A stretch of DNA of 64,000 bases from Candidatus Delongbacteria bacterium (lineage in GTDB: Bacteria > UBA4055): positions 101,224-165,223 of the forward strand of contig JAFGVM010000016.1 in the NCBI GenBank assembly GCA_016937995.1, given 5' to 3'. Below the pieces are notes generated by a model that was not told the DNA's origin, searched no databases, and saw only the letters and a program-made list of their open reading frames with translations. How positions within the stretch are numbered: position 1 is the first letter of the stretch; every line of letters starts with the position of its first letter. Both the position numbers and the translations under genes were made by a program. Below, piece by piece: positions 30,083-60,288 of the stretch.

Positions 30083-30289
30083 TTATTTATCCTGAACAGT
30101 ATCTTTTATTACTTTTGTATTTTTTTGCAGACTTCTAATCTCTTCCAGTATTTCATTTTGATCAACGATCTTATTTTTGATAAGAACTTGTATGAGAGCT
30201 TCTATAGTTATTGTGTTAGTTAAAGCTAATTTTTCAACAGAAAGATCTAATTTTGCTTCAGGTTTATCTTTTTTTCTAAATGACAACAT
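30083..30289 (-). CDS. Small hypothetical protein (68 aa).
   Basis: ORF only. Sits convergent to recR with a 5-bp gap. No recognisable motif. Confidence 0.2.
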   Translation of the reverse strand: MLSFRKKDKPEAKLDLSVEKLALTNTITIEALIQVLIKNKIVDQNEILEEIRSLQKNTKVIKDTVQDK

Positions 30290-30380: not shown

Positions 30381-30965
30381 ATGGCAAGAAAATACTTAAT
30401 AACACTACTCTCTCTGTTTATCTTTGTTTCATGCTCAGATATTTTTTCCACAAGAGACCCTGAAGAACCTTATACTGACGGTGACAGTTATATTTCTGAG
30501 TCTGTTTCAGGACTACTCACCAATATGAAAACATCACTTCTTTCACTTGATAAAAATTTTTATGAATCTTTGCTTATTGACTCATTAACAACTGAATACA
30601 CTTACACTTTCATATCAAATTCTCAGGACATATCAGAGCAGGATATTTTTAACGACTGGGGTATCGATAATGAAAAAATTTTCATTAATAACCTGAAAAC
30701 GTCCGGATCGAATTTTACAGATATCGATCTATCATTGAATGACTCTTACAATGAAGCTGAAGATTCATTGAATATCGAACTTGATTACTCAATGAATTTT
30801 ACTGACTCTTCATCAGTTACAACTCAGGTAATAGGTTCGTTTACCTTAAAGATCATCAAAGTTGACGGTCATTTCTGGTATATTAAAAACTGGATCGATG
30901 AGAATTTTGACCTTTCAACAGGTCAAAAGAGCTTTAGTAAACTGAAAGAGCCGTTCGTATACTAA
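30381..30965 (+). CDS. Hypothetical lipoprotein.
   Basis: MARKYLITLLSLFIFVSCSD is a signal peptide with lipobox. Ser/Asp-rich. No catalytic motif. Confidence 0.4.
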   Translation: MARKYLITLLSLFIFVSCSDIFSTRDPEEPYTDGDSYISESVSGLLTNMKTSLLSLDKNFYESLLIDSLTTEYTYTFISNSQDISEQDIFNDWGIDNEKIFINNLKTSGSNFTDIDLSLNDSYNEAEDSLNIELDYSMNFTDSSSVTTQVIGSFTLKIIKVDGHFWYIKNWIDENFDLSTGQKSFSKLKEPFVY

Positions 30966-31045
30966 ATTAACCTTTGATTTTTCATTGACTTTACAAATCC
31001 CTTTTTATATATTCACAAAGTTCAAAAGGTCATTATGAACCTAAT

Positions 31046-31118
31046 GCTCCCGTAGCTCAGTGGATAGAGCAGTAGTTTCCTAAACTATTGGTCGGAGGTT
31101 CAACTCCTCTCGGGAGTA
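31046..31118 (+). tRNA. tRNA-Arg (anticodon CCU). No CCA is encoded; the discriminator A is followed by CAG.
   Basis: Manual fold. Acceptor GCTCCCG/CGGGAGT (G1·U72 wobble). D arm GCTC-AGTGGATA-GAGC. Anticodon arm GTAGT-TTCCTAA-ACTAT (U33, C34 C35 U36, A37). Variable loop TGGTC. T arm GGAGG-TTCAACT-CCTCT. Confidence 0.8.
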
Positions 31119-31320
31119 CAGAGAAGGACCGAGAGAGTTAAACTGAACAGGAAACAACTCCTCTCGGGAGTACAGAGAACGGCCGAGAGAGTTAAACTGA
31201 ACAGGAAACAACTCCTCTCGGGAGTACAGAGAAGGACCGAGAGAGTTAAACTGAACAGGAAACAACTCCTCTCGGGAGTACAGAGAACGACCGTGAGAGT
31301 TCGTGATGATCCGGGTTCGA
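31104..31320 (+). repeat. Tandem direct repeat, 54-bp period, ~3.7 copies (starts at 31104, 31158, 31212, 31266). Each copy begins with the tRNA-Arg T-stem/acceptor 3' strand (CTCCTCTCGGGAGTACAG...).
   Basis: Read directly. Units 1 and 3 are identical (CTCCTCTCGGGAGTACAGAGAAGGACCGAGAGAGTTAAACTGAACAGGAAACAA). Unit 2 differs by AAGGA to AACGG. Unit 4 diverges after GAGAGTT. Each unit can form a 7-bp hairpin, CTCTCGG-N15-CCGAGAG. Confidence 0.85.
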
Positions 31321-31349
31321 ATTAAGCAATCTAAAAAATGAGGTTTACG

Positions 31350-32018
31350 ATGAGTATTGATTTCAAAAGAAAAGCACAGAACGAAGAAATGGGTAAAACA
31401 TACGAATTCATGCTAAAGAACAAAAATCTATTATTGGTATTAGTAGCTTCTGTCGCTGTATTAATCATCATAATGAATCTGTATAAATCCAACGTGGCAA
31501 AGACTACAGCAATAGCTGCAGATAAACTTTATGAGGTAAGCAAAGCTTTTCAGGATAAGGACTATGCTAAAGTAATCGAATTGGGACCCGGCTATGTTGA
31601 AAAATATTCAGGATACGGATCTGCAGGAGATATTCTGATAATTACTTCACAAGCTCTTTTAAAAGAAGGTAAAGTGGATGAAGCAAAAGAAATATTAGAG
31701 AAAAATTTGGGATCTTATAAAGATTTTGGTCCAATAGAATTTGCAGCTAATAATATTCTGGGCGGTATTTATTTAGATAAATGGTCTGAATCAAAAGATC
31801 CAAAAATGGCTGAAAAATCTGCAAAATACTACTATAAAGCTGCTATCGCAGATAACGGTTTTCATAAAGATAAAAGTTTGTACCTTTCAGCTGATTCGTA
31901 TGTAAAAGCAGGTAACATAACAAAAGCAAAAGAATTATTAAAACCATTATATGAAGATAAAGAAGTTGAATATCAACTAAAACAGCAGATCAAATTTTTA
32001 TATGAAGGTTTAAATTAA
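31350..32018 (+). CDS. Membrane-anchored TPR-like protein (YfgM-like architecture).
   Basis: GAGG RBS 7 nt upstream of the ATG at 31350. N-terminal single TM (LLLVLVASVAVLIIIMNL), then a ~180-aa helical repeat region. The listed ORF start at 31338 is less likely. Confidence 0.45.
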   Translation: MSIDFKRKAQNEEMGKTYEFMLKNKNLLLVLVASVAVLIIIMNLYKSNVAKTTAIAADKLYEVSKAFQDKDYAKVIELGPGYVEKYSGYGSAGDILIITSQALLKEGKVDEAKEILEKNLGSYKDFGPIEFAANNILGGIYLDKWSESKDPKMAEKSAKYYYKAAIADNGFHKDKSLYLSADSYVKAGNITKAKELLKPLYEDKEVEYQLKQQIKFLYEGLN

Positions 32019-32037: not shown

Positions 32038-32066
32038 TAAAGGCAAACTGTGTTTGCCTTTTTTTA
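32038..32066 (+). terminator. Rho-independent terminator after the TPR-protein gene.
   Basis: AAAGGCAAAC-TGTG-TTTGCCTTT stem-loop followed by TTTTTTATA. Confidence 0.6.
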
Positions 32067-59954: not shown

Positions 59955-59990
59955 AAAAAAAATAGAGCAGGAATTCCTACTCTATTTTTG
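59955..59990 (-). terminator. Rho-independent terminator immediately 3' of tRNA-Ser(GCU).
   Basis: On the minus strand: TAGAGTAGGAATTCCTGCTCTA hairpin followed by T10. Confidence 0.55.
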
Positions 59991-60077
59991 CGGGGAACAC
60001 AGGATTCGAACCTGCGGAAGGGTTACCCCTTCAACAGTTTAGCAAACTGCCGCTTTAAGCCTCTCAGCCAATTCCCC
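59991..60077 (-). tRNA. tRNA-Ser (anticodon GCU), class II with long variable arm. No CCA encoded.
   Basis: Manual fold of the reverse complement: GGGGAAT-TG-GCT...AGC-G-GCAGT-TTGCTAA-ACTGT, variable arm GAAGGGGTAACCCTTC, T arm GCAGG-TTCGAAT-CCTGT, acceptor 3' GTTCCCC, discriminator G. Confidence 0.75.
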
Positions 60078-60085
60078 GTTTAGAA

Positions 60086-60195
60086 TCAAGAGTGTTTATG
60101 CTCTTGAATTCTTTTATTTTAGGATCAAGAGTGAAGTTATGAACTCTTAATTCTAAAATCCTATGTAAACAAGAGTGTTTTTGCGAACACTCTTG
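60086..60195. repeat. Three related stem-loops (each containing CAAGAGTG / CACTCTTG) in the spacer between the two tRNA-Ser genes.
   Basis: Hairpins at 60086-60107 (TCAAGAG-N8-CTCTTGA), 60127-60148 (AAGAGT-N10-ACTCTT) and 60170-60195 (CAAGAGTGTT-TTTGCG-AACACTCTTG). Read directly. Confidence 0.5.
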
Positions 60196-60204
60196 AAATC
60201 TCAG

Positions 60205-60288
60205 CGGAGGATGAGGGACTCGAACCCCCAAGGGCGCAAACCCGGCGGTTTTCAAGACCGCTGCCTTACCAATTAGGACTAATCCTCC
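60205..60288 (-). tRNA. tRNA-Ser (anticodon UGA), class II. No CCA encoded.
   Basis: Reverse complement folds as GGAGGAT-TA-GTC...GGC-A-GCGGT-CTTGAAA-ACCGC, variable arm GGGTTTGCGCCC, T arm GGGGG-TTCGAGT-CCCTC, acceptor 3' ATCCTCC, discriminator G. Confidence 0.75.

Follow-up and report, generated by a model that had tools for sequence, protein, structure and literature searches.

Directly downstream of the tRNA-Arg(CCU) gene in a 64,000-nt stretch of the Candidatus Delongbacteria contig JAFGVM010000016.1 (positions 101,224 to 165,223, forward strand; the whole stretch is hereafter the window) lies an array of tandem 54-bp units, each full unit ending in an exact copy of the 3' end of that tRNA. 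The rest of the unit contains a 5' arm complementary to the copy, and the two arms are predicted to form an extended hairpin. Units of the same design directly follow the tRNA in about 14 of approximately 18 Candidatus Delongbacteria lineages, and within each lineage the copies remain identical to the local tRNA. The element exists, is conserved and has not been described before; the evidence for its structure is good, its function is a matter of inference, and the precise number of units is uncertain. The interpretation offered in a first-pass annotation of the window is partly supported. What goes beyond it is the conservation of the element at the tRNA-Arg locus across Candidatus Delongbacteria and the finding that the 'constant tail' noted there is the 5' arm of the hairpin, which pairs and covaries with the tRNA-derived segment. 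Taken as a whole, the reading in which this lineage-conserved, tRNA-derived structured repeat acts as a processing or insulating module has in our estimate a probability of about 45%, its parts differing in strength.

The repeated tRNA end and its hairpin

ARAGORN calls tRNA-Arg(CCT) at 31046-31119 and the Rfam tRNA model scores 67.4 bits over 31046-31118, both upholding the first-pass description of a tRNA that ends at A73 with no encoded CCA (the gene end reads GGGAGTA followed by CAG). Tandem Repeats Finder places the array, by far the strongest tandem repeat of the window, at 31101-31301, with a period of 54, 3.7 copies, 95% matches and a score of 374. In agreement with the four exact recurrences and approximately 3.7 copies originally counted, CTCCTCTCGGGAGTACAG occurs at 31104, 31158, 31212 and 31266 and at no other site in the window. 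The tRNA 3' segment AACTCCTCTCGGGAGTAC stands at 31102, 31156, 31210 and 31264, the intact gene being followed by direct repeats of its own end. All 18-mers present at least three times in the 64 kb are confined to 31101-31287 (starts 31101-31270), and a junction-spanning 40-mer has three matches versus none in 100 shuffles. Direct comparison of the units showed that units 1 and 3 are identical, as had been stated, and that unit 4 diverges, departing from the others after GAGAGTT. The difference of unit 2 was also seen, although it amounts to two substitutions within a 3-nt stretch (GGA to CGG) and the reported '3-nt change' slightly overstated it. Neither a 3-mismatch pattern search nor an nhmmer profile found further copies of the unit beyond 31099-31281 in the 64 kb, and at the related loci the unit profile matches the position after the tRNA only, with no match in the flanks. 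A dispersed repeat family of the REP, BIME or MIRU kind was discarded, since the repeat occupies a single locus in the 64 kb and in the related flanks.

The syntenic locus was compared in approximately 18 lineages (L-numbers label loci or contigs). In every sampled lineage tRNA-Arg(CCT) lies immediately upstream of a gene for a TPR protein, 41-73% identical to that of the window. A unit is counted from one C74 up to the following A73. It opens with a purine-rich linker (2-9 nt) and continues with a 5' arm of AC-NN-CCGA-x-GGAGUU type, a small inner hairpin (CCUU-GAA-AAGG or CCU-GCAA-AGG; CUG-AA-CAG in the window) and a short junction; it closes with a 3' arm, which is an exact copy of tRNA nt 57-73 and is followed by C74. 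The helix core is formed by CCG(A) with (U)CGG (nt 65-68) and, across a small asymmetric loop, by GGAGUU with AACUCC (nt 57-62); the closing pairs involve G71 and U72, and an internal loop faces G69 and A70. The 7-bp pairing CTCTCGG/CCGAGAG noticed in the first pass is real and forms part of a longer 11-bp helix with one bulge. Folded alone, the units reach -13 to -23 kcal/mol, and z-scores against dinucleotide shuffles range from -2.0 to -4.6 for 12 units, with -0.6 for L023. The extended hairpin is the minimum-energy fold in 12 of the 13 lineage units and the centroid in the 13th. In the B-type units (L010_B, L017, L067) the copy has a 3-nt deletion and the 5' arm is altered to match.

The junctions had been thought to resemble a decayed T arm. 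This is supported by the L015 lineage, in which the identity of the copy to the tRNA still reaches nt 51, the unit reading AGGTTCAACTCC (tRNA nt 51-74), with the T-loop motif GGTTCRANYCC that has decayed to GGAAACAACTCC in the window. The securely tRNA-derived part of the unit is nt 57-74 only (51-74 in L015). We rejected the possibility that a unit is an internally deleted copy of the whole tRNA: in global alignments with tRNA nt 1-56 the non-copy part scored no better than shuffles in 10 of 11 lineages, L015 alone beating them (p=0.011), and the resemblance of the 5' part of the unit to the acceptor 5' strand, the D-stem 3' strand and the anticodon-stem 3' strand is by eye only.

A structural alignment of 13 units was made by hand, because MAFFT alone misaligned the inner part of the units; N was treated as a gap, and the aligner preserved the arrangement. 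In this alignment, the manual construction of which biases pair counts towards structure, canonical pairs occupy 92.7% of 220 pair cells, versus 34-52% when the 3' partners are slid by 1-3 columns. Both sides of the helix change at p59 (G:C in 10 units, A:U in 3), at p57 (U:A in 11, C:G in 1) and at one pair of the inner hairpin (U:A in 6, G:C in 4). The observed covariation score was reached by none of 500 shuffles, a control that overstates significance because the hand alignment follows the structure and the lineages share ancestry. Few compensatory events are independent: position 59 accounts for at least two and position 57 for one. Three variants of the T loop (CAACTCC, CAATTCC and CGATTCC) are each common, within a lineage, to the tRNA, to the copy and, complemented, to the 5' arm. 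Where substitutions in the arms break Watson-Crick pairing, the result is G·U or U·G (five cells) and in no case A·C, which points to sense-strand RNA and not to a DNA hairpin. That the array is a real, conserved, tRNA-derived tandem repeat we regard as nearly certain, and that its hairpin is a selected structure of the sense-strand RNA as probable.

The same alignment bears on a neutral minisatellite, in which a tRNA 3' end and its trailer were duplicated by chance and multiplied by slippage, with no function. The two arms would then be kept complementary by hairpin-templated quasi-palindrome correction together with homogenisation against the selected tRNA, and homogenisation with the functional tRNA would by itself constrain the 3' arm. 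The range of 0 to 9 units among assemblies agrees with such neutrality, as do the loss or degradation of the unit in L003, L004, L066 and L068 and the hypothetical status of any function. What it does not predict is the behaviour of the non-tRNA 5' arm. Several positions of this arm are invariant in all 13 units, including those of lineages at 41-47% TPR identity; linker, junctions and loops, in contrast, are free to vary. At such divergence neutral intergenic DNA would be unalignable. The changes that the arm does show are compensatory or G·U, never A·C, and hence strand-specific and of an RNA rather than a DNA character, and the inner hairpin covaries too. We therefore consider neutrality unlikely, albeit the strongest of the competing explanations.

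Where the hairpin is incomplete, its parts have diverged. L068 and L069 lack the 5' arm, which slippage between two GGGAGTAC motifs apparently removed, and the orphan copy carries two substitutions. In L004 the copy is decayed and pairs poorly with its 5' arm.

Several other identities were discarded. Rfam 15 at gathering thresholds gave no match but the tRNA, the other matches in 30900-31500 having E>=0.2, far below threshold. The array is not a CRISPR array, as the whole 54-bp unit repeats with no unique spacers and no CRISPR family reached threshold. An intrinsic terminator was rejected, since the array has no U run and no plus-strand terminator call. The array is also not considered to be coding: a plus-strand frame is open through it but has no early start, and unit length in other lineages is 52-57 bp and mostly not a multiple of 3 (52, 53 or 55-57 bp in most). 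The open stretch, in frame 2 at 31060-31320, comprises 86 stop-free codons from inside the tRNA through the array (repeat LSGVQRRTERVKLNRKQ) and includes AGA and AGG codons, AGG being the codon read by tRNA-Arg(CCU). It is taken as a by-product of the 54-bp period, without a start codon and not conserved in relatives. On the minus strand, the 61-aa repeat open reading frame (ORF) dismissed as spurious in the first pass does exist inside the array and is spurious. Immediately 3' of the array, at 31310-31325, is CCGGGTTCGAATT, a near-consensus T-loop motif (GGTTCGAAT) without a matching stem or tRNA call, which may be a relic of another tRNA-derived piece.

Occurrence and copy number in Candidatus Delongbacteria

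Loci with units are L006/L007/L014, L013, L009-L012, L015/L051-L060, L017, L022, L023, L024, L061-L063, L064/L065 and L067. A single unit is present in L013, L022 and L061 and in L015 and L052-L058, and one unit plus a partial one in L006/L007/L014, L023 and L024. L011/L012 and L067 have two units, L064 two and a partial, and L017 at least two, the array being cut by the contig end. The window contains three units and a partial, L010 seven (one B type plus six A type) and L009 nine of mixed A and B types. Terminal partial units like that of the window are found in L006, L023, L024 and L064. The remaining loci hold a decayed unit (L004), a remnant without the inner part (L003, L005, L008; a miniaturised hairpin in L003), a unit that has lost its 5' arm (L068, L069) or no unit at all (L066). 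Units thus number one to nine per assembly where present, or 0 to 9 counting L066, with short-read collapse confounding the counts. In L066 the tRNA is followed, at 810-900, by an AT-rich 10-bp inverted repeat (AAGAAATTGT...ACAATTTCTT) and then TTTTG. Its identity as a terminator was rejected, as the terminator scan did not call it.

Among the findings that would refute it, the first-pass annotation named identical arrays, common and invariant in related genomes, under a known annotation such as a described REP-like element. Related arrays are indeed common in relatives, but none is annotated and none belongs to a described family. When metagenome contigs were scanned for pairs of tRNA ends separated by 36-52 nt, the scan recovered five of these loci and five unrelated satellites (L016, L018-L021), which contain GGGAGTA but have no tRNA nearby; their periods are 14 bp (GTCTGTCGGGAGTA, L021), 39/49 bp (L016, L019) and 63 bp (L020), with a 64-bp spacing in L018. 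A protein search of genome contigs gave two loci only, both among those found otherwise. A profile search with the TPR protein returned 37 homologue clusters, and those with a named source are from Delongbacteria except one labelled Clostridiales.

The array is a systematic assembly breakpoint, and unit counts from short reads are lower bounds. L011 and L012 correspond to L010 with its identical A units apparently collapsed. Scaffolds of one related Delongbacteria species have runs of N inside the array (L051 1281-1414, L054 1259-1362), and sister assemblies of that species have one unit or break at the array. The contigs L059, L060 and L065 start inside it. For the window itself, the Logan short-read contigs of run SRR13394436 break at both edges, L001 ending within the tRNA and L002 beginning within the last unit; they provide independent confirmation of the distal array junction in the last unit and none of the copy number. 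Such breaks, together with the collapses and N gaps of other assemblies, are what one would expect if the array were an artefact, namely a de Bruijn cycle wrongly joined or counted when the genome was assembled from the metagenome. Yet dozens of independent assemblies, which differ in sample, pipeline and species, contain units, and these are lineage-specific in sequence and carry compensatory changes, and the units of the window differ from one another by distinguishing substitutions. We give an artefactual origin almost no credence; the doubt concerns how many copies there are, not whether the array exists.

Variation in unit number is also the basis of a quite different explanation, that of a contingency-locus leader, in which slippage would supply heritable, reversible variation and unit number would tune expression of the YfgM-like TPR protein via the length, structure or stability of the leader. 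Its position, between the only promoter-like site and the TPR ribosome-binding site, would suit such a leader. L009 and L010 encode an identical TPR protein but differ in the order and number of units (nine mixed A/B versus B plus six A), the difference in order going beyond what simple collapse would produce; scaffolds of one species (L051, L054) have longer arrays across their gaps. Much of the variation may nevertheless be assembly collapse, as in L011/L012 versus L010 and in L052-L058 versus L051/L054. No systematic pairing of the last unit with the ribosome-binding site was seen, and tuning by unit number leaves unexplained why the 3' arm must copy the tRNA. A contingency leader is in our view improbable, more so than a neutral array. 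In practical terms, the array is a recurrent breakpoint in short-read metagenome assemblies of Delongbacteria and a source of spurious ORF calls, and it could be usable as a variable-number tandem repeat (VNTR) marker for strain typing.

Possible origin and function, and relation to known systems

The promoter-like sequence TTGAC(T/A)-17-TATATT is kept upstream of the tRNA in all aligned lineages and was also called in L066 and L010. No promoter-like or terminator-like plus-strand site was called between the tRNA (31046) and the TPR start (31350). The sole plus-strand terminator-like call comes after the TPR gene, and the minus-strand terminator calls in the array correspond to the self-complementary ACTCC...GGAGT of the tRNA copy. 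Because the only promoter-like site ahead of the TPR gene is that of the tRNA, the array is, judging from this layout, probably the spacer of a tRNA-Arg/TPR co-transcript. The layout is compatible with the first-pass suggestion of a leader for the downstream TPR gene. All three tRNA genes of the window lack an encoded CCA and have C at position 74 (regions 31118-31119, 59990 and 60204). In Bacillus, tRNA genes without CCA imply RNase Z-type endonucleolytic 3' processing followed by CCA addition. By this analogy, the lack of CCA in all three genes suggests that a similar 3'-end pathway may operate in the source organism, with CCA added after endonucleolytic cleavage.

We propose that an ancestral Delongbacteria tRNA-Arg(CCU) gene gained a short trailer module just downstream. 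Its 3' arm would have copied tRNA nt 57-74 (51-74 in some lineages), its purine-rich 5' arm, of the CCGA-x-GGAGUU type, would complement the copy, and both arms would close around a small inner hairpin. Because the parent tRNA end and the copies are direct repeats, the module could expand and contract by replication slippage or unequal exchange, yielding one to nine or more units. The same exchange would homogenise the copies with the functional tRNA end, a concerted evolution whose pattern is observed and whose process is presumed. In a transcript that would start at the strong tRNA promoter, with the array as the spacer between tRNA-Arg and the YfgM-like mRNA, each unit may fold into the extended hairpin, with its base at nt 71-72 followed by A73 and C74, a geometry like that of an acceptor/T arm. 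The hairpins would offer the complementary trailer arm a partner other than the tRNA, letting the tRNA fold. The tRNA-end-like helices may in addition mark where the tRNA 3'-end machinery or another endonuclease separates tRNA from mRNA, and the units may define or stabilise the 5' region of the mRNA. This role in processing or insulation is put forward tentatively, and a cleavage end is no more than suggested by the modelled fold, in which A73 and C74 come after a helix base at nt 71-72.

Several observations weigh against this proposal. The units are not scored as a tRNA or a fragment of one by ARAGORN, which finds one tRNA per syntenic locus, or by the Rfam tRNA model (E<=10, 30900-31500). 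The closing AC:GU pairs are missing in units 1 and 3 of the window, and the helix of several lineages is able to continue across A73 and C74 (GUAC:GUAC), which does not fit a free discriminator base. Minimum-energy folds of the whole precursor favour mixed arrangements instead of a cloverleaf with hairpins: the trailer arm takes up the 3' strand of the tRNA itself, and the acceptor stem is closed by a distal copy instead. Our reading is that these folds reflect degeneracy among identical 3' strands and not a specific alternative structure; the 'cloverleaf plus n hairpins' arrangement depends on the order of co-transcriptional folding. At least one lineage (L066) lacks the unit and others keep remnants only, and the module is therefore dispensable. 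Copy numbers are unreliable, since short-read assemblies collapse identical units, leave N gaps and break in the array, and the hand-fitted alignment and related lineages inflate the shuffle-based significance. Finally, co-transcription, the cleavage sites and any effect on the TPR gene are all putative.

The same hairpins could instead be products in their own right. The array would then be a cassette driven by the tRNA promoter and releasing processed small RNAs, units of 52-57 nt cut between A73 and C74 by the tRNA 3'-end machinery, with several identical hairpin RNAs per transcript. A separate function would reside in these RNAs or in the spare tRNA 3' strands that they contain. Such RNAs might buffer the folding or maturation of the rare-codon tRNA-Arg(CCU) against the complementary trailer, or they might titrate a factor that recognises the T-arm/acceptor strand of the tRNA. 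We think this about as improbable as the contingency leader; if true, it would represent a new class of tRNA-linked bacterial RNA with a copy number set by slippage.

Duplication of a tRNA 3' end also raises the question of site-specific integration, in which the repeats would be att-type scars of one or more integrations at tRNA-Arg(CCU), the elements having been deleted afterwards. According to the work of Williams from 2002, the T loop is reportedly a common sublocation of the crossover, and the repeated segment of the array starts in the T loop. More generally, integration at a tRNA 3' end, the classic attB site, leaves behind a partial copy of the tRNA (PMC9897764). Against such scars, no integrase or element cargo is present next to or between the repeats in the window or at the syntenic loci of the approximately 18 lineages, only 35-40 bp separate the copies, and the copies co-evolve with the tRNA and with the complementary arm. 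The spacers were not independently acquired, because those of one lineage share homology with one another and with those of other lineages. When 2.9 million viral contigs, a set that did not extend to plasmids or integrative elements, were scanned for the 3' 15-mer of the tRNA, 26 matches were obtained, all unrelated tRNAs or chance matches, and no related attP or tRNA fragment. Integration scars are thus very improbable, and the choice of the first-pass annotation for tandem amplification of the tRNA 3' end with its trailer holds. In four viral contigs (L036, L045, L048, L049) an unrelated phage tRNA near the 15-mer match stands about 20 nt ahead of another tRNA's 3' end (GGGTTCGATTCCCACCGTCCGCTCCA); this is an att-type tRNA fragment of the classic kind and contrasts with the array.

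Partial tRNA genes in prokaryotes are otherwise ascribed to element integration or to CRISPR spacers (PMC9897764). Like att-type fragments (PMC9897764), the array has a duplicate of the tRNA 3' end as a direct repeat downstream of an intact gene. Unlike them, it has a spacing of about 35 bp, no integrase and several identical copies that co-evolve with the tRNA, whereas att fragments enclose an integrase and kilobases of cargo, usually occur singly and diverge from the tRNA. The mycobacterial MIRU-VNTR loci consist of tandem units of about 50 bp in operon orientation, with strain-variable copy number, dispersed at many loci. Both they and the array have units of about 50 bp within a transcription unit, a putative one for the array. 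MIRUs are not known to derive from a neighbouring tRNA; the array was found at one locus, is tRNA-derived and has a probably selected hairpin.

The nearest phenomenon described at the DNA level is that of the trnF(GAA) pseudogene arrays in the plastids of angiosperms (Brassicaceae, Solanaceae, Asteraceae and others), where the number of partial copies, each of 32-73 bp, ranges from one to seven depending on the taxon (PMC3786074). As in Delongbacteria, partial tRNA copies stand head to tail beside their functional parent. The plastid arrays are clade-specific and non-coding and have been attributed to illegitimate recombination or slippage (PMC3786074). Their copies lie upstream (5') of the gene, are mainly pieces of the anticodon, D and T domains, usually without acceptor strands, and are treated as pseudogenes, with no conserved complementary arm or hairpin described (PMC3786074). 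By contrast, the Delongbacteria copies are downstream, comprise the 3' part of the T loop, the T-stem and acceptor 3' strands, the discriminator and C74, face a covarying arm and belong to a free-living bacterial phylum. As a working analogue we propose the t-elements and acceptor-like stem-loops of plant mitochondria, which have been proposed as processing signals for RNase P and RNase Z (PMC1920247). The suggested parallel is a tRNA-derived or tRNA-end-like helix that forms part of a longer transcript, at a place where an mRNA end is required, and adjoins genuine tRNAs that punctuate the transcript. The t-elements are degenerate cloverleaves with GGTTCRANYCC, single-copy and dispersed, with ends mapped experimentally (PMC1920247). 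The Delongbacteria units are tandem simple extended hairpins that keep GGTTCAACTCC in some lineages only, and their RNA ends are hypothetical.

No description of tandem partial-tRNA repeats downstream of a bacterial tRNA, or of this Delongbacteria element, was found in the open-access literature. The features that are new relative to known tRNA-derived tandem repeats are the selected hairpin, the downstream position and the phylum-wide conservation. If the reading as a processing or insulating module is true, the array would be an undescribed structured RNA element of an uncultivated phylum, made by recycling a tRNA 3' end, in which a functional tRNA gene evolves in concert with its partial copies and with a complementary arm. 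It would then be a bacterial counterpart both of organellar tandem tRNA-pseudogene arrays and of tRNA-like transcript punctuation, and a simple, testable system for the separation of tRNA and mRNA from a co-transcript in a bacterium with CCA-less tRNA genes. A self-copying hairpin under concerted evolution is unexpected for a tRNA or RNA biologist, and no long-standing question rests on it yet.

Genomic context and minor observations

The locus is ordinary chromosomal DNA of about 34% G+C. The gene order is dnaX, ybaB, recR, a small minus-strand ORF, a gene for a 194-aa hypothetical protein, the tRNA, the array, TPR_21, a hypothetical gene, truA and, on the opposite strand, a gene for an S49 peptidase. 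A Candidatus Delongbacteria metagenome-assembled genome encodes a protein identical to the 222-aa TPR product (ATG 31350, with GAGG ahead of it). Table 1 lists the features of the tRNA-array-TPR region.

Table 1. Features of the tRNA-Arg(CCU) array region, in window coordinates
Feature	Position	Strand	Remarks
Sigma-70-type promoter-like TTGACT-17-TATATT	30985..31013	+	Upstream of the tRNA; 10/12 matches; putative promoter
tRNA-Arg(CCU), 73 nt	31046..31118	+	Discriminator A73; C74 at 31119; ARAGORN and Rfam RF00005
Parent copy of the repeated segment, AACTCCTCTCGGGAGTAC	31102..31119	+	tRNA nt 57-73 plus C74
Unit 1	31119..31172	+	-14.0 kcal/mol, z -2.0 alone; nhmmer match E 8e-14
Unit 1, linker	31119-31128	+
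Unit 1, 5' arm	31129-31139	+	CCGAGAGAGTT
Unit 1, inner hairpin/junction	31140-31155	+
Unit 1, tRNA-derived 3' arm	31156-31172	+	Its C74 (31173) opens unit 2
Unit 2	31173..31226	+	Two substitutions creating closing AC:GU pairs; -15.4 kcal/mol, z -2.4
Unit 3	31227..31280	+	Sequence identical to unit 1
Terminal partial unit	31281..31301	+	Linker and 5' arm CCGTGAGAGTT; no tRNA-derived partner downstream
Unique leader	31302..31349	+	Stemless T-loop-like GGGTTCGAAT; ribosome-binding site GAGG 31340-31343
Gene for TPR_21/YfgM-like membrane protein, 222 aa	31350..32018	+	Pfam TPR_21 and TPR-S; alternative in-frame ATG 31338
Intrinsic-terminator-like hairpin and T run	32039..32061	+	10-bp stem, then TTTTTATACAT; would close the putative tRNA-array-TPR transcription unit
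Spurious 61-aa ORF	31080..31265	-	Product of the 54-bp (18-codon) periodicity

The 5' leader between the promoter-like site and the tRNA (31020-31045) contains a GTTCA...TGAAC hairpin, which is conserved in the clade of the window (L003, L004, L006). The L009/L015 clade has a different tRNA leader, TCGATACTCTTT..AAATAG, in its place. Further upstream, the small minus-strand ORF (30083-30289; counterparts in L003-L064; 66-75 aa, no Pfam match) is conserved in position in all Delongbacteria lineages sampled and lies upstream of the gene for the hypothetical protein of 188-194 aa. It follows recR in the clade of the window and a gene for a GFO/IDH/MocA oxidoreductase or an LPG synthase in the other clade.

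The regions 59990-60288 (minus strand) and 60090-60210 hold the other tRNA genes of the window, tRNA-Ser (GCT) and tRNA-Ser (TGA), which lie 126 bp apart, and their spacer. Both genes have ordinary trailers, with no repeat similar to the array. The spacer contains several copies of an inverted repeat with CACTCTTG, e.g. AAGAGTGTTCGCAAAAACACTCTTG and CAAGAGCATAAACACTCTTG, and tRNA-Ser(GCT) is followed by a canonical hairpin and T10 terminator.

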